Source: Promethearchaeota archaeon (lineage in GTDB: Archaea; Asgardarchaeota; Lokiarchaeia; Sigyniarchaeales; SOKP01). Taken from it: a stretch of DNA of 64,000 nucleotides. The first letter of the stretch is position 1, and every line of letters starts with the position of its first letter. The stretch covers positions 192,001 through 256,000 of the forward strand of contig JBHLLT010000002.1 in the NCBI GenBank assembly GCA_048938855.1. Direction: 5' to 3'. A model generated the notes under the pieces. It had not been told where the DNA came from, made no database searches, and saw nothing but the letters and a program-made list of their open reading frames with translations. Shown in pieces: positions 22,624 to 37,780 of the stretch. Both the position numbers and the translations under genes were made by a program.

Positions 22624-23559
22624 ATGGATGAAATTGATATTTCTCTTTCATTACTTCTAATGGTTAATTCCAGAATTACCTATAAAGAATTAGCTGAAAC
22701 GTTCAATATGAGTGTGAATTCTATTCATAAAAGAATAAAATCTTTAGTAGATCTTGGAGTAATACAAGGTTTTAAATCAAAATTAGGATTCACAAATTTT
22801 CCTGGGATGACAAATATTATCATTTTTGGTTTTTCAAATATAAAACAAAAAAAACTATTAATAAACAAACTAGGAAATAATGAATTTATTTATAATGTGA
22901 CACAATGTAGTGGTAATGCGGTATATATTAATGCATATTTAAGGAATATTAGTGAATTAGACGCTTTAGTGTCATTTATTCGAAAGACGGGAAATCTTAC
23001 CGATTTAATTATCGGTATTGATAAAAGAATGCCCCCTATTAATGTTGAAGAATTGAATTTTAAACCTCCAACTGATTTAGATTATCTAATTATTAATTCA
23101 TTAAAAGACAATTCTAGAAAATCAATTTCTGATATTGCTATTGAAGTGGGAGCTTCCACTAAAACAATAAGAAGAAGGCTGGATCGCTTAACAGAAAATT
23201 ATCTTATTCAATTTCAAATAGATTGGTATCCTGACAAAACTGGAATAATAAATACCATGATAAATTTAGAATTAGATTCTAATGCAATTATTGATGATAG
23301 AGAATTTGAAAATAGATTAAAACAAAAATTAGGTTCAAATATTCTCTTTACTTGGTCATTTAGTAACCTTCCTAATTTTAAACTCATTTTTATATGGACA
23401 AAATCCATGAAGGAACTTCAAGATTTACAATCTTTACTCTCTTTTGAAAATTATAAAAAATTTGATTTGAATATTTTAATTGGAGGAAAAATGTTTCCAA
23501 CTTGGATAGATACCTTTTTAGAAGATAAAGTTAATGAAATAAAAACTAAATCACTATAA
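22624..23559 (+). CDS. Tandem Lrp/AsnC-type wHTH transcriptional regulator
   Basis: Two HTH units (NSRITYKELAETFNMSVNSIHKRIKSL; NSRKSISDIAIEVGASTKTIRRRLDRL), each followed by a RAM-like domain. Confidence 0.85.
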   Translation: MDEIDISLSLLLMVNSRITYKELAETFNMSVNSIHKRIKSLVDLGVIQGFKSKLGFTNFPGMTNIIIFGFSNIKQKKLLINKLGNNEFIYNVTQCSGNAVYINAYLRNISELDALVSFIRKTGNLTDLIIGIDKRMPPINVEELNFKPPTDLDYLIINSLKDNSRKSISDIAIEVGASTKTIRRRLDRLTENYLIQFQIDWYPDKTGIINTMINLELDSNAIIDDREFENRLKQKLGSNILFTWSFSNLPNFKLIFIWTKSMKELQDLQSLLSFENYKKFDLNILIGGKMFPTWIDTFLEDKVNEIKTKSL

Positions 23560-29130: not shown

Positions 29131-29601
29131 TTAAAGCATACCAATGGAATCAGATCTAAATAATTCCTTCATTTCCTTACCTAACTCCGCTTGATCGGTT
29201 TGAAGATACCTGTTTAGAATTAAAGCAATTTTTGGGGACCATTTTTTCATTATAGCTCGAATGAAACCAATTTGAGCATTTTTATCCGCCACAATACATA
29301 AAACTCCTTTTCCAACTTTCATTGAAAAGATCATCCCTTCAAGATATTCGGTAATTTGCAAATCAATAGCCCCATAACCTAGAATATGACCCTGTTCCTC
29401 TCCTGCAACAAAAACAGCACCCCCTATAGCACCAATTTTTTCAACAGAGATCCCATTTTCATCAGAAAATTTAAATTTAGCTTGACTTAAAATCGTTATT
29501 CCTGTATCATCAGTGATGAGCGCAAATTTTAACCCGGGAGCACTATTTATGATTAAGGTTAAAATCTTCTTTAATCTAAGCTCATCCTCAGTGTAACTCA
29601 A
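29131..29601 (-). CDS. Roadblock/LC7 (MglB/LAMTOR-like) protein
   Basis: ALITDDTGITILS, helix EKIGAIGGAVF, GVLCIVADKNAQIGFIR. Confidence 0.85.
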   Translation of the reverse strand: MSYTEDELRLKKILTLIINSAPGLKFALITDDTGITILSQAKFKFSDENGISVEKIGAIGGAVFVAGEEQGHILGYGAIDLQITEYLEGMIFSMKVGKGVLCIVADKNAQIGFIRAIMKKWSPKIALILNRYLQTDQAELGKEMKELFRSDSIGML

Positions 29602-29809: not shown

Positions 29810-30157
29810 TTAGAAAAGCTCTTGTGATTTAATTAAACCTTTTAAAGGTCTTAGCCGACTCTTATATTCTTTAGATTTATCCAATAATACTAATAGCTTG
29901 TAATTTTTAGTTTTGTCTAAATCTCGTTTAATTTGAACTAAATGTGGATCCTCTATAAACCCCCCCTTTTTAACAATTGCAGATAAAGCCAAAGTGTTTT
30001 CAAGTACCCACAATTTCTTCGATATTTTAGACGCGATTGGGAAACCATGGCGATCGGTAATAACTCCGGCAACAAAGCTTGGGAAATTTTTCTCGATCCT
30101 ATATAAAAAATAATTAACCTCACTTTGGTTTATTAGTTTATCCATTCTTTTTAGCAC
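29810..30157 (-). CDS. Roadblock/LC7-like protein (short, divergent)
   Basis: AGVITDRHGFPIAS motif followed by helix and strands; likely start is the ATG four codons in, after an AGGTG SD. Confidence 0.6.
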   Translation of the reverse strand: MLKRMDKLINQSEVNYFLYRIEKNFPSFVAGVITDRHGFPIASKISKKLWVLENTLALSAIVKKGGFIEDPHLVQIKRDLDKTKNYKLLVLLDKSKEYKSRLRPLKGLIKSQELF

Positions 30158-30330: not shown

Positions 30331-31308
30331 TTATTTATTATTTCTCTTTAATGATATTCCCAAATTTAAATTATCTACAAGTTCACTAAATCGATTTCGA
30401 ACAGTAACTTCAGTTACACAACTTACTCGAGCGATATTTCTTTGAGTTCTTCTTTCATTAGATAGAATACACGAGGCATAAATTGCTGCAGCACAAACTC
30501 CAGTAGGACCTCTCCCAGAGGTTAATCCTCGTTCTTCGGCCATTCTTATTATTGTTTTTGCCGTTTTTTGGCATTGATTAGTTAGACCTAATTCTGAAAT
30601 GAATCTCGTAAGGAAGTCAATTGGTTTAGTAGGATTTAATTCTAAAGATAATTCGTTAGATATAAATCTAAAAGATCTTCCAATTTCTTTCTTATCCACT
30701 CGTGCGACTTCCGCTATTTCATTTAATGTTCGTGGAACCTTATACATTCTACAGGCAGCGTATAAACTAGCAGCAGCCACTCCTTCTATGCTTCTTCCAC
30801 GAATTAAATGGGCTTCAACAGCATCTCGATATATTTTAGCCGAGCATTCTCGCAAATTTTTTTGAAGATCAAGATTAGAAGCCATACGATCAAGTTCACT
30901 TAATGCAAAAGTCAGGTTTCTTTCAGTTGCATCAGATACTCTAATACGACTTTGCCATTTTCTAAGTCTATATATTTGACCTCTTAATTTTGCCGGTATC
31001 TCCTTTCCAAAAATGTCTCTATTTTTCCAATCTATCATAGTACTAAGTCCTTTATCATGGATCATATATGTCATAGGAGCACCTGTCCTCGTTCTTTTCT
31101 TTTTTTGGTCAGCATCAAAAGCTCTCCATTCTGGACCACGGTCAATATGTTTTTCTGAATGCACTAAACCACATTCCTCACAGACTAATAGTCCTCTATT
31201 CTCGTCAAAAAATATATTTTTTCCACATTCCTTACAGATATCAATTTCTGTGTATGAGTCATCCTCCAATACGGATTTTAAATTTCTCCAACTTGAAATA
31301 AAACACAC
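30331..31308 (-). CDS. tfb: Transcription initiation factor IIB
   Basis: Zn ribbon CKECG...CEECG, GPEWRAF B-reader, two cyclin repeats ([25 protein letters not shown]). Confidence 0.97.
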
Positions 31309-31357
31309 CTTTTTTTATAATATTCTTGATTTGTACTAGAAAGATTAATTCTGAAAA

Positions 31358-31612
31358 TTAATTTATTTTAGTATAAATTTTGTCGTCGGGGTTAAAAGAT
31401 TGATTAGATAAAGCTTTGATTGAAATAAAGGGAAAATCTATTGGACCGAAAACATCTTTAATAAATCCAATTTTTTCATACTTCTCATTGTACACTGAGT
31501 TTTTAATTATTTGTTCTAATTTATTATTCCATTGTTTTGCTCTAAAGATCTGATGATTTTTTGAGGATTTTCCGAGATAATATAGATTTAATTTAACCCA
31601 GTTCTTTTTCAA
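31358..31612 (-). CDS. gar1: H/ACA RNP protein Gar1/Naf1
   Basis: IGFIKDVFGPIDFPFISIK motif; gar1-tfb adjacency is conserved in archaea. Confidence 0.8.
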   Translation of the reverse strand: MKKNWVKLNLYYLGKSSKNHQIFRAKQWNNKLEQIIKNSVYNEKYEKIGFIKDVFGPIDFPFISIKALSNQSFNPDDKIYTKIN

Positions 31613-31766
31613 GAGATCCCCTAGCTAAGTGGATATACAATTTAAAATAAATGATGGTTGTTAATATTTAAATATAATGGTTTTTATTTCCCATTCATAC
31701 AAAAATGGAAACGACAGTTTAACCTGGTTTCAATAAATTTGTCGTTAAAATTATCAAAAAAAGATT

Positions 31767-32867
31767 TTAAATATAGTTTTTCTTTAGATTATACTTTTTC
31801 TTACAATCGCACTTAAATTCTTGCTGTTCTAACTCATCTAAATTTTGGGAAAGTACAAAGTTCTTAAGTTTTTCTCTTGCATAGGTCTCACATTCTTTCT
31901 TCAAACAATTATGAATACCTCTTTTTGTTCCCGCCCCAGAAGGATCAGACAACAATCTTACATTGTTTAAATCCTCCTGACTTACAGAATTTCTTATAGT
32001 TTTAAAAAGTGAATAATACCATGGTGGTCTATATCTATTTTGAAACCATAAATATTCTACTAAAGTTCCTTTTTGAACATTAGTAGGATTAATTGAAATT
32101 GAATTAACATCTAAATCTATTAATTTTTTTATTGAATATGTACAATCATCGATTGCTGCTTGTTCATTAAGAAATGGTGGTTTAAATAACAAATACACTT
32201 TTACACCAATATCATTTTCTTTACATTTATTCACAACCCTCTTAAAATCTTTGAATAAAACTCCCTTGTTAATATAATTATTTCTGACATAATCATCAAC
32301 ACTCTCAAGTCCAATAGCAATTTCAAGGTATTTCCTATTTAAGGTATCTCTTATTTCTGCCAATTTATCAGTTGTTATATATTCCATTCGCGATTCAATA
32401 ACAACTTCTTCAATCTTTTCAACGTTTGATATTCTATTATAAATATGATTTCGAACTTCTTTAGATATCTCATTTTCATCTAAAAAACTCCCAGAATTAA
32501 ATAGTTTGAGATTATATTTATAAATATCGCTCTCAATTTCATTCAGTTTATCGTTAAAAGCATAATCAAATTGATTAATAAGATTTGAAGATGATATCTT
32601 TCTTTTTGCAGCATCTAGATAATATCCACACATGGAACATCCTCCGTGCTTACTTAAAGCCCAACTACACCCTTTTGTTCTTAAAATAATTGTGAATTCT
32701 TTTCCAATTTTATCTCTGAGTCTATCATCTTTTGTCCAATAACTAATTGGACGTTTTAGTTGTTCTTCTCTTAAGTTAGTTTTTCGTTTAAGAGTATTTT
32801 CACGAATAGAGTTTATTTTTTCAACAATACTACTATTTTCTTTAAAAACGTAATTTTGGTTATTCAT
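31767..32867 (-). CDS. Archaeosine biosynthesis radical SAM protein RaSEA
   Basis: ILRTKGCSW...GGCSMCGY, FNSGSFLD, IESR, IGLES, YLLFKPPFL, YRPPW, HNC; overlaps arcS. Confidence 0.88.
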   Translation of the reverse strand: MNNQNYVFKENSSIVEKINSIRENTLKRKTNLREEQLKRPISYWTKDDRLRDKIGKEFTIILRTKGCSWALSKHGGCSMCGYYLDAAKRKISSSNLINQFDYAFNDKLNEIESDIYKYNLKLFNSGSFLDENEISKEVRNHIYNRISNVEKIEEVVIESRMEYITTDKLAEIRDTLNRKYLEIAIGLESVDDYVRNNYINKGVLFKDFKRVVNKCKENDIGVKVYLLFKPPFLNEQAAIDDCTYSIKKLIDLDVNSISINPTNVQKGTLVEYLWFQNRYRPPWYYSLFKTIRNSVSQEDLNNVRLLSDPSGAGTKRGIHNCLKKECETYAREKLKNFVLSQNLDELEQQEFKCDCKKKYNLKKNYI

Positions 32868-34935
32868 TGATTTTTACAATTCTCCCGCTTTTAGATTGTC
32901 TTATGAAATTAGATCCGACAATTAATTCTCCACTTCCAACAATTTTTTTCTTTTTTTTATCTAAGATTACTACTTGATTATCAGGGATAAGATCTAGGCT
33001 ATAATCTAAAACTCCAGCTCTAAACAAGGTATTACCTTTTATCTCTTCTCCATCAAAGACAATACAATTTGCGTCTATAGATTGGTATGATTGAATAAAT
33101 CTTTCCAAACCTAAATTGGCTAATTCGATTTGGCCTGTAGAATATTTAAATACTCCTATTTTTTCTTGAGTTTTTGAATCAATTAATTCAATTTGATTAC
33201 CGGATCTATTAAATTTAAGTTTTAAACTATTAGTAATAATTTTATTGCCTACAGCATCACCGAACTGATAATCTAAAATTTTAATAAATTTTCTAGTCCA
33301 TGTTTTGGAATAGGTTTCACTTTTCGGATAACTTTTCTTGGGTCTATATTTATCCTTATGTTCAATAATTAATTTCTCCAAAGATTGGAGAGATTCAGCA
33401 GAAGTTATATTACCAGATATTTCAGAAAAGATGAAATAGTTTGGTAATTTCGAAGCAGCTCTTTTTATAATTTCATGATATTCATTTTTTAAATGGCAAA
33501 TGATCGGTATTTTTGGGTCATATTTTTCAATTATTTTAATTAGCATGTCTGATGCAATATTTACTTCCTCGTTATCCCATTCACCAGTAACGGATATATC
33601 ATACGAATTGACTGGATAAATATTTTCTAATTGTATAGGAACACACCCTAATGGTGAGGTTAATATTATTTCTTGGAAATTAGGAAATTCTGGAAACTTT
33701 CTTATAATCCTATAAAATTTTTTATGAGATTTAGATTCTGAATAAGGCTTTTTAGCAGAACAGGGAAGAACAATAATTAAATTTGTCCAAGGTTCGGGGT
33801 TAAAAGTTTCAACTGCTTTTTCCCTAAACAGATGAAAATCTGGTCTATAGTAAGATGAGGGTCCAAGACATTTCACTATTTTTCCTTTTTGTTTTATTGG
33901 GGTTTCATATTTAATTACATCATAAAATTCTTTATCTAAAACCTTTAACATTGAAATTAAATTAGTATCATCAAGCGAAGACTTTTCCACAAATGCTCTA
34001 TAATCTTCAAAGTTCATATATTGCTTAATTTTATTCATATAATTGTTTGCCGTAATCAAATTATGTAAACTTAATAAATCAAGTTTTTCAGCAGAATATT
34101 TATTTTCTAATATTTTTGATAAATCCCCTCTACATGCTAAGCAAGAACAAGGGAAATGTTTTATTTTATAAATAGGTAATAAATATTCAATCGTATCATA
34201 AAAATTTTCAGCTGATAAAAACAACGAATATGAGGAATCAATCAAATCTATTCCTAGATATATGATCAATGGATAAAATTTTGGAATAATTCTCCCTGAT
34301 GCCATTATGACTAAATTGTTATCCAATTCTGTTTTGATTTTTACTATACTAGTTATTATATTTCTAAAATTGCTGAAGTTGTTAAAAAGATCTGATAGAT
34401 TTATGATTTTTATGTTAACAAATTCTTTGAAAATAAAGATATAAAGATCTAACAACTCAGCGTACTCAAAGAGTCTTAATGTTATACCAAAATTTAGATC
34501 AGGATGTGCTTTTAGAATTTTTTGAACATTATAAAGATAATTTCTTACTTCTGAACCTGCAAATTCCCTACTAATACTCGTTGTTGGAATATTAAATGGA
34601 ATAACTGATATTATATTGTCTTTAGACAAAATATTACTATTTTTTACTATAATTTCTTCAAATTTTTGTAAAGTACCTGTATATGTAAAAATAAATCCAT
34701 TATTCCTGAATTTCTCACGTATAAATCCCACTTTTAGAAAAAATTCTTTCGTAATTGTAAATAAATCATGATTTTCAAATTCTTGAACAAAATTAAAACG
34801 TTTCATTAAGGAACTTTTTATTGGGATTACAATATTGGGAGTATTGACATATAATTTTCGTTCTTTTGAGAAAATTATCCGCCCTATTCTTGAATATCCA
34901 ATCTTACTGGCAAGTACTTCAAAGAAATTAGTCAT
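32860..34935 (-). CDS. arcS: Archaeosine synthase alpha subunit (TGT-like barrel, PCSxxKPYSxSxSH domain, PUA-like end)
   Basis: GIDLID, CSCLAC...HN zinc site, LPCSAKKPYSESKSH, TSPLG, YDISVTGEW, DYQFG. Confidence 0.88.
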   Translation of the reverse strand: MTNFFEVLASKIGYSRIGRIIFSKERKLYVNTPNIVIPIKSSLMKRFNFVQEFENHDLFTITKEFFLKVGFIREKFRNNGFIFTYTGTLQKFEEIIVKNSNILSKDNIISVIPFNIPTTSISREFAGSEVRNYLYNVQKILKAHPDLNFGITLRLFEYAELLDLYIFIFKEFVNIKIINLSDLFNNFSNFRNIITSIVKIKTELDNNLVIMASGRIIPKFYPLIIYLGIDLIDSSYSLFLSAENFYDTIEYLLPIYKIKHFPCSCLACRGDLSKILENKYSAEKLDLLSLHNLITANNYMNKIKQYMNFEDYRAFVEKSSLDDTNLISMLKVLDKEFYDVIKYETPIKQKGKIVKCLGPSSYYRPDFHLFREKAVETFNPEPWTNLIIVLPCSAKKPYSESKSHKKFYRIIRKFPEFPNFQEIILTSPLGCVPIQLENIYPVNSYDISVTGEWDNEEVNIASDMLIKIIEKYDPKIPIICHLKNEYHEIIKRAASKLPNYFIFSEISGNITSAESLQSLEKLIIEHKDKYRPKKSYPKSETYSKTWTRKFIKILDYQFGDAVGNKIITNSLKLKFNRSGNQIELIDSKTQEKIGVFKYSTGQIELANLGLERFIQSYQSIDANCIVFDGEEIKGNTLFRAGVLDYSLDLIPDNQVVILDKKKKKIVGSGELIVGSNFIRQSKSGRIVKINE

Positions 34936-35088: not shown

Positions 35089-36393
35089 CTAGAATATTAA
35101 GAAATTAGTGTATGGGATTAACTCATCCAAGACGAAATTTGTATAAGTATCTTCTATTTCCTCTGAAATATATAAATCTCTTATGAATGTAACGTAATCT
35201 TGAATCTCTTTTACTCTTATAATGGCAAAGAGACCATATTGCTCACCTATACGAAATAAATCTGTAATATTTTTGTTTCTCTCCAATCTAAGTGCTAAAT
35301 CATTATATTTTGAAGGATCTTTTGGCTTAATTCGAAGAAGATATTTTCCTTTAAAACCTAATTCTTTTGGTTGAAAATTTACTGTATAATTTAATATTAT
35401 ACCTTGCTGCTCAAGTCTTTTAATTCTGTTATGTATAGTTGATTGAGATATTTCCTCCTCATATCTATTTTTAAATATGTCTCTTATCTCATATGTGGAT
35501 ATTGGTTTAAGTCCTTGACACTCTCGTAAGATATTAAGGATAATATAATCATTATTATCTATTTCAAAATTTTTATCAAACCTATTGTTATCTAATTCAA
35601 TCCCAGTGTTTCTTAAGGCTTTAATAATTTGATCCATTAATAAGCCAGATTCTGAGAGATTGTTTAGGCCAGATATAACTATTTTACCGTTTGGAAAAAC
35701 TATAATTCTTATTGGGGTATTATCCATTTCAATAACAAGTCCAGGAAATTTTTTAGGATGATATTTAGTATTTGGATTTTTTTGAGCAAATTGGTTTAAA
35801 TCGATTTTTTCTCGGCTATCAATTTCAATATTATCTCTTTCGCTTCTCTCTTTTTCTTTTAGTTTATGAAATAACCTATCTCGAAGTAAATCCTCTAAGG
35901 TAAATTTTGCTTTCCTGAGGCTAATCCCATTAGTTTTAAACACTTTTATTGTTTCAATTATTTGATATTTTTTAAAGTATGATCTTGCCATTATTTCATC
36001 AATTATATTTAATATCTGATAATATTCTTCTGAGGATTTAAAAACCAATAAAGCAAATAAAGAAAAATCTCCAATTATGCCATCTAACATTCTTAATTGA
36101 GGAATTTCTAATAATTCTTTAACCAGATCTGGCTCTTTTGGGTTTGTTTTTATCTCAATCATTACATATTTTAAGTTGTTAGGCTGAATGTTTGGATTAA
36201 TATTAATTGTAAAATTTTTAATTATTTTTTGATCTCTCAGATTATCAAGTTTGTTTTGATATGTTTGTCTAGAGAGTCCAATCTCACGGGCGTTTCTTGA
36301 AATAATAAACTTGGTTTTTCCACTTAAATTTTTTATGAAGTGTTGAGCTCTTAATTCATCTTTAATATCATTCATTTTAAAACAAATTTGCAT
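35089..36393 (-). CDS. Tandem Lrp/AsnC regulator with an inserted single TBP-like repeat
   Basis: HTH+RAM unit 1 (AREIGLSRQTYQNKLDNL; GIIGDFSLF), TBP-like segment IDLNQFA...YHPKKFPGLVIEM...IIVFPNGKIVISG, HTH+RAM unit 2 (ISQSTIHNRIKRLEQQGII; IGEQYGLF). Confidence 0.82.
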   Translation of the reverse strand: MQICFKMNDIKDELRAQHFIKNLSGKTKFIISRNAREIGLSRQTYQNKLDNLRDQKIIKNFTININPNIQPNNLKYVMIEIKTNPKEPDLVKELLEIPQLRMLDGIIGDFSLFALLVFKSSEEYYQILNIIDEIMARSYFKKYQIIETIKVFKTNGISLRKAKFTLEDLLRDRLFHKLKEKERSERDNIEIDSREKIDLNQFAQKNPNTKYHPKKFPGLVIEMDNTPIRIIVFPNGKIVISGLNNLSESGLLMDQIIKALRNTGIELDNNRFDKNFEIDNNDYIILNILRECQGLKPISTYEIRDIFKNRYEEEISQSTIHNRIKRLEQQGIILNYTVNFQPKELGFKGKYLLRIKPKDPSKYNDLALRLERNKNITDLFRIGEQYGLFAIIRVKEIQDYVTFIRDLYISEEIEDTYTNFVLDELIPYTNFLIF

Positions 36394-36511
36394 TTTTTTT
36401 TATGATTACTAATTAAATGTTAAATTAAATATATAAATATTTACATTCAACCAAAAAAAGCTTTATTAATTAATTAAAATTAATAATCTTACAAAAAAGA
36501 AAATGATTTAA

Positions 36512-37780
36512 ATGGTAAAATATAAAGTTGCAGATGAAAAATTGGCTGATCAAGGAAAGGAAGCACTCTATATTGCTGAAAGAGAAATGCCAGTCACATC
36601 AAAAATCATACGAGAACGATTTACTAAAGAAAAACCTTTAGAAGGAGTTGTTATTGCGGGATGTTTACATGTAACAAAAGAAACGGGGAATTTGGCTCGA
36701 ACATTGAAAGCTGGTGGGGCTGATGTATATCTCTGTGGCAGCAACCCTTTATCCACTCAAGATGATGTAGCAGCCGCGTTAGTACAAGAAGGAATTAACA
36801 TTTTTGCTTGGCACGGAAATACAGATGAAGAATTTTACTGGTGTATTAGACAATGCCTAAACGCCAAACCAAATATCTTGATTGACGATGGTGCTGATAT
36901 GATTGTTACTGCTCATCAAGAATATCAAGATTTGATTAATTCAGGTACAATCATAGCATGTCAAGAAGAAACCACAACAGGTGTTAAGAGATTTAGAGCA
37001 ATGGATAAAAATGGTGTTTTGAAAGTACCACTCTTCCCTGTTAACGATGCACGCTGTAAAAATCAATTTGATAATGAACTAGGAACTGGGCAAGGTATTA
37101 TAGCCGCAATTTATGGGATGCATGTATTGTTTGCTGGTAAATATGTGGTTATTGTTGGATATGGACATTGCTCTTCTGGTATGGCATTACGAGCGAGAGG
37201 TCTGGGTGCTAATGTAACCGTAACTGAGGTTGATCCAATAAAGGCCTTACAAGCAAAATTTGCAGGATTTAATGTAATGCCTATTGAAGAGACATTACCT
37301 TATGCAGATATAATTTTAACTGCTACTGGATGCAAGCATGTTATTGCACCCACTAAAGAAATGTTTGAAAAATTGAAGAATGGAGTTATTCTAGGGAATC
37401 TTGGACATTTTGATATAGAAATCCCAACTAAGGAAATTTACAATTATGCTAAAGAAATTAAACCTATTAGAAAAGATGTGGAAGAAATCACTTTTCCTAA
37501 TGGTAAAAAAATATATCTCCTTGCTAAAGGACGATTAGCAAATTTAGTTCTTTCTGAAGGTCATCCAGCTGAGATTATGGACATGTCATTTGGTTTACAG
37601 TCTTTAATGTCTGAGTACATCGTTAAAAATAAAGAAAAATTAAAACCTGGAATGCTCAATGTTCCCTCTGAAATTGATGATCGAGTTGGATTCTTAAAAC
37701 TTCAATCAATAGGTGTTAAGATTGATAGCTTAACCGAGGACCAATATAATTATATCCACGGTTTTCTTGAGGGTACATAG
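36512..37780 (+). CDS. ahcY: S-adenosylhomocysteine hydrolase
   Basis: GCLHVTKETG, SNPLSTQD, IDDGAD, EETTTG, FDN, GHFDIEI, GRLANL, GHP.EIMDMSF. Confidence 0.96.
   Translation: MVKYKVADEKLADQGKEALYIAEREMPVTSKIIRERFTKEKPLEGVVIAGCLHVTKETGNLARTLKAGGADVYLCGSNPLSTQDDVAAALVQEGINIFAWHGNTDEEFYWCIRQCLNAKPNILIDDGADMIVTAHQEYQDLINSGTIIACQEETTTGVKRFRAMDKNGVLKVPLFPVNDARCKNQFDNELGTGQGIIAAIYGMHVLFAGKYVVIVGYGHCSSGMALRARGLGANVTVTEVDPIKALQAKFAGFNVMPIEETLPYADIILTATGCKHVIAPTKEMFEKLKNGVILGNLGHFDIEIPTKEIYNYAKEIKPIRKDVEEITFPNGKKIYLLAKGRLANLVLSEGHPAEIMDMSFGLQSLMSEYIVKNKEKLKPGMLNVPSEIDDRVGFLKLQSIGVKIDSLTEDQYNYIHGFLEGT

Follow-up and report, generated by a model that had tools for sequence, protein, structure and literature searches.

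The window, a stretch of 64,000 nucleotides from a Promethearchaeota archaeon, contains on its minus strand a single uninterrupted frame of 434 codons whose product carries, in this order, an HTH-RAM unit of the Lrp/AsnC family, one repeat of the TATA-binding protein (TBP) and a second HTH-RAM unit. The database version of this protein begins at the second methionine, which is the probable start. The gene is transcribed divergently from ahcY and is followed by a block of genes that ends in tfb (Table 1).

Table 1. Features of the lrp/ahcY locus, in coordinates of the window
Feature	Position	Strand	Remarks
Tandem Lrp/AsnC regulator with TBP-lobe insert	35089-36393	-	434 aa; probable start 36375, giving 428 aa
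Lrp unit 1 (HTH + RAM)	35917-36393	-	dN/dS 0.11
Lrp unit 2 (HTH + RAM)	35092-35562	-	30% identical to unit 1; dN/dS 0.15
Helical spacer	35857-35898	-	Replaces first half of TBP strand 1; long insert class only; spacer region dN/dS 0.55
Single TBP repeat	35593-35832	-	Copy of the host TBP1 N-lobe, 37.5% identical in this genome; dN/dS 0.35
F216, first intercalating Phe of TBP	35746-35748	-	Invariant, 85/85 copies
F233, second intercalating Phe of TBP	35695-35697	-	Kept in 84% of copies (weighted)
Candidate Lrp operator, ends TGTTAA	36408-36423		Conserved across the family, partly in other families; putative function
lrp TATA-like box (36430-36437) and BRE-like element	36430-36445	-	6 bp from candidate operator
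ahcY BRE-like and TATA-like element	36451-36469	+	Kept in carriers and most insert-loss lineages
ahcY, adenosylhomocysteinase	36512-37780	+	Divergent partner conserved across the order; probable regulatory target
arcS, RaSEA, gar1-like, tfb	30331-34935	-	Downstream; same order with and without insert

Architecture of the regulator and its locus

A sequence-only reading had described a TBP half-domain that lies between two complete Lrp/AsnC units and keeps both phenylalanines that TBP intercalates into DNA, and this description holds. The Pfam TBP model (PF00352) matches residues 192-262 (window 35608-35820; E=8.9e-14) with a score of 51.5 bits (cut-off 22.9), the top PDB sequence matches are archaeal TBPs (2z8u, E=4e-18), and the folds closest to an AlphaFold model of the isolated lobe (pLDDT 73) are TBP lobes (1mp9, Z 8.9, rmsd 3.0 A, 88 residues). 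Both phenylalanines are present. On either side of the repeat, RAM stretches match PF01037 (AsnC; E=1.3e-10), HTH_24 is matched too, and the top Foldseek matches of the Lrp halves are all Lrp proteins. The product scores below every named NCBIfam equivalog cut-off, and the ESM Atlas returned generic Lrp clusters only, all below 0.9. Together with its helical spacer the insert spans about 108 aa (35593-35916). An AlphaFold model of the full-length protein leaves the domain arrangement unfixed (pTM 0.40), and a predicted complex of two lobe copies (residues 152-264) scored 0.01 with no usable arrangement and speaks neither for nor against pairing. The phenylalanine pair and the basic phosphate contacts that characterize TBP lobes are found across copies; each chain has one TBP repeat, short of the two-repeat saddle of a functional TBP. 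We place the protein in both the Lrp family and the TBP-domain superfamily, but not among the TBPs.

An insert confined to this assembly would have pointed to a chimera. PF00352 lies between the same Lrp units in 94 of the best 120 protein matches, which, where a source is named, nearly all bear Promethearchaeota/Lokiarchaeia or other Asgard labels, and a contig from another sequencing run within the likely source study crosses the insert and both junctions with zero differences; chimerism or misassembly is thereby ruled out. Among the best 150 matches from 1.84 billion representatives (50% identity), a single full-length cluster, along with fragments, has the Lrp-TBP-Lrp architecture. The feature is real and lineage-restricted.

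The closest known regulators are archaeal Lrp/AsnC (feast/famine) proteins: FL11/PH1519 (PDB 2cyy, 2e1c), LrpA (1i1g), LysM, Ss-LrpB and Ptr2. They consist of the same HTH and RAM units, supply the best sequence and fold matches of both halves, and likewise face a metabolic gene transcribed the other way, a conserved box standing beside the core promoter. Lrp/AsnC regulators bind DNA as RAM-paired dimers and form higher oligomers, and their RAM domain takes up a small-molecule effector. Unlike in those proteins, two units are fused here in a single chain, which implies a putative pseudo-dimer, and a TBP lobe sits within the linker; whereas Ptr2 recruits TBP, the present protein contains a TBP lobe instead. 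A second tandem Lrp-type gene in the window (22624-23559, plus strand) encodes two AsnC-type HTHs and, as had been noted from its sequence, no TBP lobe. This paralogue is only a distant relative; insert-less orthologues, which occupy the corresponding locus of sister genomes, provide the proper control for the insert.

The divergent linkage to ahcY, likewise proposed from the sequence, proved general: the tandem Lrp gene lies head-to-head with ahcY in 20 of 20 loci, including five genomes of three other families. Given this conserved partnership, the regulator probably serves SAH/homocysteine metabolism, and SAH, homocysteine or Met are candidate effectors hinted at solely by the linkage. The block of arcS, RaSEA, gar1 and tfb is present as earlier described and follows lrp throughout the host family. 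As evidence for a partnership between lobe and TFB, the tfb neighbour is ruled out, because it also lies beside insert-less lrp genes and is absent nearby in four of five other-family genomes, where none lies within 7-8 kb. Downstream of tfb, two small genes (29131-29601 and 29810-30157, both minus strand) are 70-93% identical across the genus; neither has an NCBIfam match, and 29810-30157 has no Pfam match either.

Capture and loss of a TBP1 repeat

The window's genome encodes two complete TBPs, TBP1 (genome contig C1:20317-21066) and, on contig C41, a second TBP that has diverged strongly. Inserts are up to 62% identical to the N-terminal lobe of TBP1 (family median 47%). The N-lobe match beats the C-lobe match in 23 of 23 inserts scored and the lobe tree splits N from C lobes with support 100/99, which rules out a C-lobe origin; the divergent TBP2 is ruled out as donor as well. 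The inserts radiate from TBP1 on long branches, and their single origin, recovered in 74% of bootstrap trees from few columns, is not rejected. We have thus shown that a copy of the TBP1 N-lobe was inserted, in one clade, into the short linker between the Lrp units. The N-terminal repeat of host TBP1 is the direct donor, and the insert shares its fold and has largely retained its outer DNA face. Unlike TBP1, the insert is one repeat with a degenerate dyad strand, lacks the TFB-binding glutamate pair and is dispensable. Gly-Ile-Lys-Leu closes the TBP1 lobe, and Gly-Ile-x-Leu opens the Lrp linker. In carriers, a motif of the Gly-Ile-x-Leu type stands at both ends of the insert, its right copy being followed by the ancestral 10-residue linker, which fits insertion by microhomology, so the lobe probably entered via this shared stretch. 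In a small clade (L088 of genome G052, P0065, P0075 and P0095) the insert has a fuller strand 1, ends in the TBP inter-lobe linker and has the second phenylalanine replaced; it may represent a second capture, or gene conversion or refreshing from TBP.

How widespread is the insert? In a sample of the family, the long form occurs in 30 of the 112 genomes with the gene: 17 of the host genus, this one included, 10 of a second genus and one each of three other genera. In the remaining 73% the gene occupies the same position, and its linker measures 7-13 aa. Genomes G083 and G142 are counted as non-carriers; their orthologues (G142:C71:23463-23918 and G083:C6:1593-2057) have frames of 394 and 375 aa, which are longer than the insert-less form, with no match in the lobe region.

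In a tree built on the Lrp halves with the insert removed, all 46 of 46 carriers fall into one clade (100/98) together with 11 insert-less proteins. The carrier label requires seven changes on this tree, five of them forced by well-supported branches, and carrier monophyly is rejected (AU p=0.0003). The linkers of the nested insert-less proteins differ from the ancestral linker and resemble leftover pieces of the two junctions, left and right, fused at breakpoints that vary by lineage. We read this history as one gain followed by four to six independent in-frame losses: the best tree has six, and no fewer than four are forced. The fifth of the loss lineages compared below at the promoter (G122/G104) was assigned by linker sequence and stands outside the tree. 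Recombination with insert-less alleles could explain some of the losses, notably that in the lineage with an ancestral-type linker.

Constraint on the lobe and its possible roles

The lobe is under relaxed purifying selection. In ten independent genome pairs its purifying selection is significant (N versus S, p=1e-21), and the insert evolves at about three times the rate of the Lrp halves (Table 1, same pairs) and 14 times that of TBP1, whose N-lobe has a dN/dS of 0.025 in four pairs. Within the lobe, dN/dS is 0.06 at turns, 0.24 at the outer DNA face, 0.28 in the core and 0.49 at other exposed sites (outer face versus other exposed, Fisher p=0.0013), with the 11 outer-face sites and the other classes assigned from what we take to be the contacts in TBP-DNA structures. 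Column entropy over 85 sequences is 1.48 at the outer face versus 2.16 at other exposed sites, with p=0.003, a generous value, like the other conservation p-values, as the sequences are related. Lys or Arg occupies the three phosphate-contacting positions in 96%, 84% and 95% of copies, and at least seven of eight key face residues are retained in 88%. The second phenylalanine is replaced in 16% of copies, and the copy in this genome, among the most diverged, has Glu at one of the three phosphate-contacting positions. The convex helical surface is the most variable part of the lobe.

Features that make two lobes into a TBP have decayed. Most copies lack the strand-1 Asn-x-Val of the lobe-lobe dyad, either through deletion or because an acidic strand and the spacer helix have taken its place. 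Of the dyad residues of strand 5, Thr survives in 35% of copies and Gly in 79%, the latter having become Asp, Glu or Asn in 20%. TFB is bound by a glutamate pair in the TBP C-lobe (PMC7221094); just 10% of copies have acidic residues at both positions, which are His and Lys here. The best explanation is that the lobe neither rebuilds a saddle nor recruits TFB.

How might such a lobe serve the regulator? The best reading, which we hold tentatively and at slightly less than even confidence, is an optional single-lobe grip on the minor groove. We envision that the single-chain Lrp pseudo-dimer would bind the lrp/ahcY divergent promoter through its two HTHs, as family membership and synteny suggest, and that the likeliest target of the lobe would be the TATA-like box of its own promoter, where it might tighten binding or hinder the real TBP and so tune autorepression, the choice of target and its effect being the weakest steps of the scheme. 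Such a lobe would be dispensable, with no saddle rebuilt and no TFB recruited. The low dN/dS and entropy of the outer DNA face and the basic character of its phosphate contacts argue for a grip, as does the precedent of RNase H3, whose lone TBP-like lobe binds across the minor groove of a duplex (PMC4132731).

The promoter itself offers a further, weak indication, which must be read with the proviso that its elements, among them the BRE/TATA-like pairs of lrp and ahcY that stand back to back, are putative consensus matches within very AT-rich DNA. None of the 32 carriers examined has more than one mismatch in the lrp TATA-like box, but four of 16 insert-less genomes, which belong to three of the five loss lineages, have two or more; on the ahcY side, insert-less genomes have no such mismatch excess. 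Once protein distance is taken into account, divergence is greater on the lrp side than on the ahcY side in three or four loss lineages, in one of which it amounts to a single-base indel in the BRE. That carriers keep the box better is a weak hint that the lobe may read the lrp TATA-like element. Against this, loss lineage L1 has no promoter change and another keeps the TATA box, among the five lineages available. Within 12 nt beside the box, the G+C difference between carriers and losers is small (0.87 versus 1.31), and a sigma-70 promoter scan, by a model ill-suited to archaea, stayed at shuffle level. Lrp/AsnC proteins bind imperfect inverted repeats of 13-17 bp with an AT-rich centre, and the candidate operator is a 16-bp box that lies 6 bp from the lrp TATA-like box on its downstream side. 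Across the genome the operator shows no enrichment, with 82 matches as compared with 104 for the control, and we therefore propose no regulon. A semi-palindromic motif with an AT centre (36382-36392) immediately precedes the probable start codon; roughly two thirds of the carriers and most nested losers conserve it. It presumably resembles Ss-LrpB-type operators and is a possible second autoregulatory site.

Several further observations weigh against a single-lobe grip. The lobe has been lost six times in the best tree, at least four losses being forced, with carrier monophyly rejected; the insert evolves fast, replaces its second phenylalanine in a fraction of copies and has a Glu at a phosphate contact in this genome. 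With a full-length pTM of 0.40, its reach to the DNA is hypothetical, and the conserved hydrophobic face of the sheet could also serve protein contact or stability.

Close behind in likelihood is that the lobe is a tolerated passenger, a partial TBP copy that landed in-frame in a permissive linker, was kept while it was harmless and folded, and is deleted by chance. The repeated, clean in-frame losses with differing breakpoints, the absence of the insert from most sampled family genomes, the long branches on which inserts depart from TBP1 and the concentration of the tightest constraint on turn residues all favour this account. Its prior is raised by the frequent duplication of TBP in the family (up to three paralogues per genome), by decaying stand-alone N-lobe copies and by other N-lobe fusions, which at the same time make the lobe a recurring module. 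A mere passenger sits poorly with an exposed DNA face that is constrained like the buried core and twice as strongly as other surfaces, with a first phenylalanine that is invariant in all 85 copies yet was lost by one stand-alone copy, and with persistence of the lobe in a clade of several genera.

Alternatively, the lobe may be a protein-contact module whose concave face or helices bind a full TBP, another lobe or a TBP-binding regulator, which would change the oligomeric state or tether the real TBP in the manner of Ptr2. The concave face of TBP is a known protein-binding surface (TBP dimers, TAF1, Mot1), and its hydrophobic residues are conserved in the lobe. Archaeal Lrp activators bind immediately upstream of the BRE (PMC2995911). 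We nevertheless regard this as distinctly unlikely, since the flanking basic residues are conserved as well, which fits nucleic acid better, and since the convex helices, the usual partner surface, are the most variable part. Least probable is the sequence-only proposal of a regulator-tethered pseudo-TBP, in which lobes from two chains would pair into a complete saddle, providing or imitating TBP and placing transcription start under ligand control: most copies do keep both intercalating phenylalanines and the outer face, and Lrp proteins oligomerise (PMC2995911), but the lobe is an N-lobe whose dyad strand, dyad residues and TFB-binding glutamate positions (PMC7221094) are degenerate, the genome already has two complete TBPs, TATA-like boxes stand at both promoters, and the lobe was lost several times at the same locus.

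Other captures of TBP lobes

Single TBP domains outside TBP are known from the N-domain of RNase H3, from halobacterial TbpA and from monopartite TBP domains of Thermococcales, and two isolated fusions of TBP domains with possible DNA-binding domains have been reported; that survey nowhere mentions Lrp (Brindefalk et al., 2013, PMC3597702). The lobe described here resembles the RNase H3 N-domain, which strengthens minor-groove binding (PMC4132731), in being a lone lobe outside TBP, and resembles TbpA in its close similarity to full TBP. Whereas the reported fusions diverged anciently from TBP (PMC3597702), the Lrp capture is recent, with identifiable donor, junctions and losses. A literature search found no description of an Lrp-TBP-Lrp fusion, in line with the earlier impression that the architecture is undescribed; most subscription journals lay outside its coverage.

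The same N-lobe was captured elsewhere. In a GTPase-HTH fusion (L099:1280-2803, minus strand, in G014; P0121 and P0123-P0129) its partners are a small, Rab-like GTPase and an HTH of the ArsR/MarR type; the fusion comprises seven clusters of 507-508 aa with lobe identities of 63-100% and is an independent capture of the TBP1 N-lobe. P0255 (320 aa) carries a TBP N-lobe at its C-terminus (residues 229-304); its N-terminal part has no Pfam match and looks, by eye, longin/uDENN-like, which would make it a third fusion. N-lobe captures thus recur, with no C-lobe capture among those found, which suggests that copies capable of binding TFB are purged.

From a broader perspective, Loki archaea may repeatedly recruit a TFB-blind TBP N-lobe (Lrp, GTPase-HTH, longin-like), and in the present protein a ligand-controlled, tethered lobe, alone or paired, may gate the TATA box against TBP. 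We consider this rather unlikely; if true, it would be a new mode of archaeal promoter control made from a piece of the basal machinery. The fusion is real and testable, and its most exciting reading is unlikely. It is a traceable donation of half a basal transcription factor to a gene-specific regulator, for which donor, junctions and natural deletion controls are available, and it opens to experiment the question of whether a lone TBP lobe can bind and bend DNA, a point relevant to the origin of the two-lobed TBP by duplication. Even if inert, the lobe would illustrate cleanly how Asgard archaea gain and lose a domain.

Lone and duplicated TBP genes occur as well. Stand-alone N-lobe frames of about 120 aa occur at one shared locus in three genomes (L096:1847-2206, L097:1685-2050 and L098:about 2000-2376, all minus strand); one of them is without the first phenylalanine and one is interrupted. 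At L103 (G140:C9:164753-166047), two near-identical full TBP genes stand in tandem.
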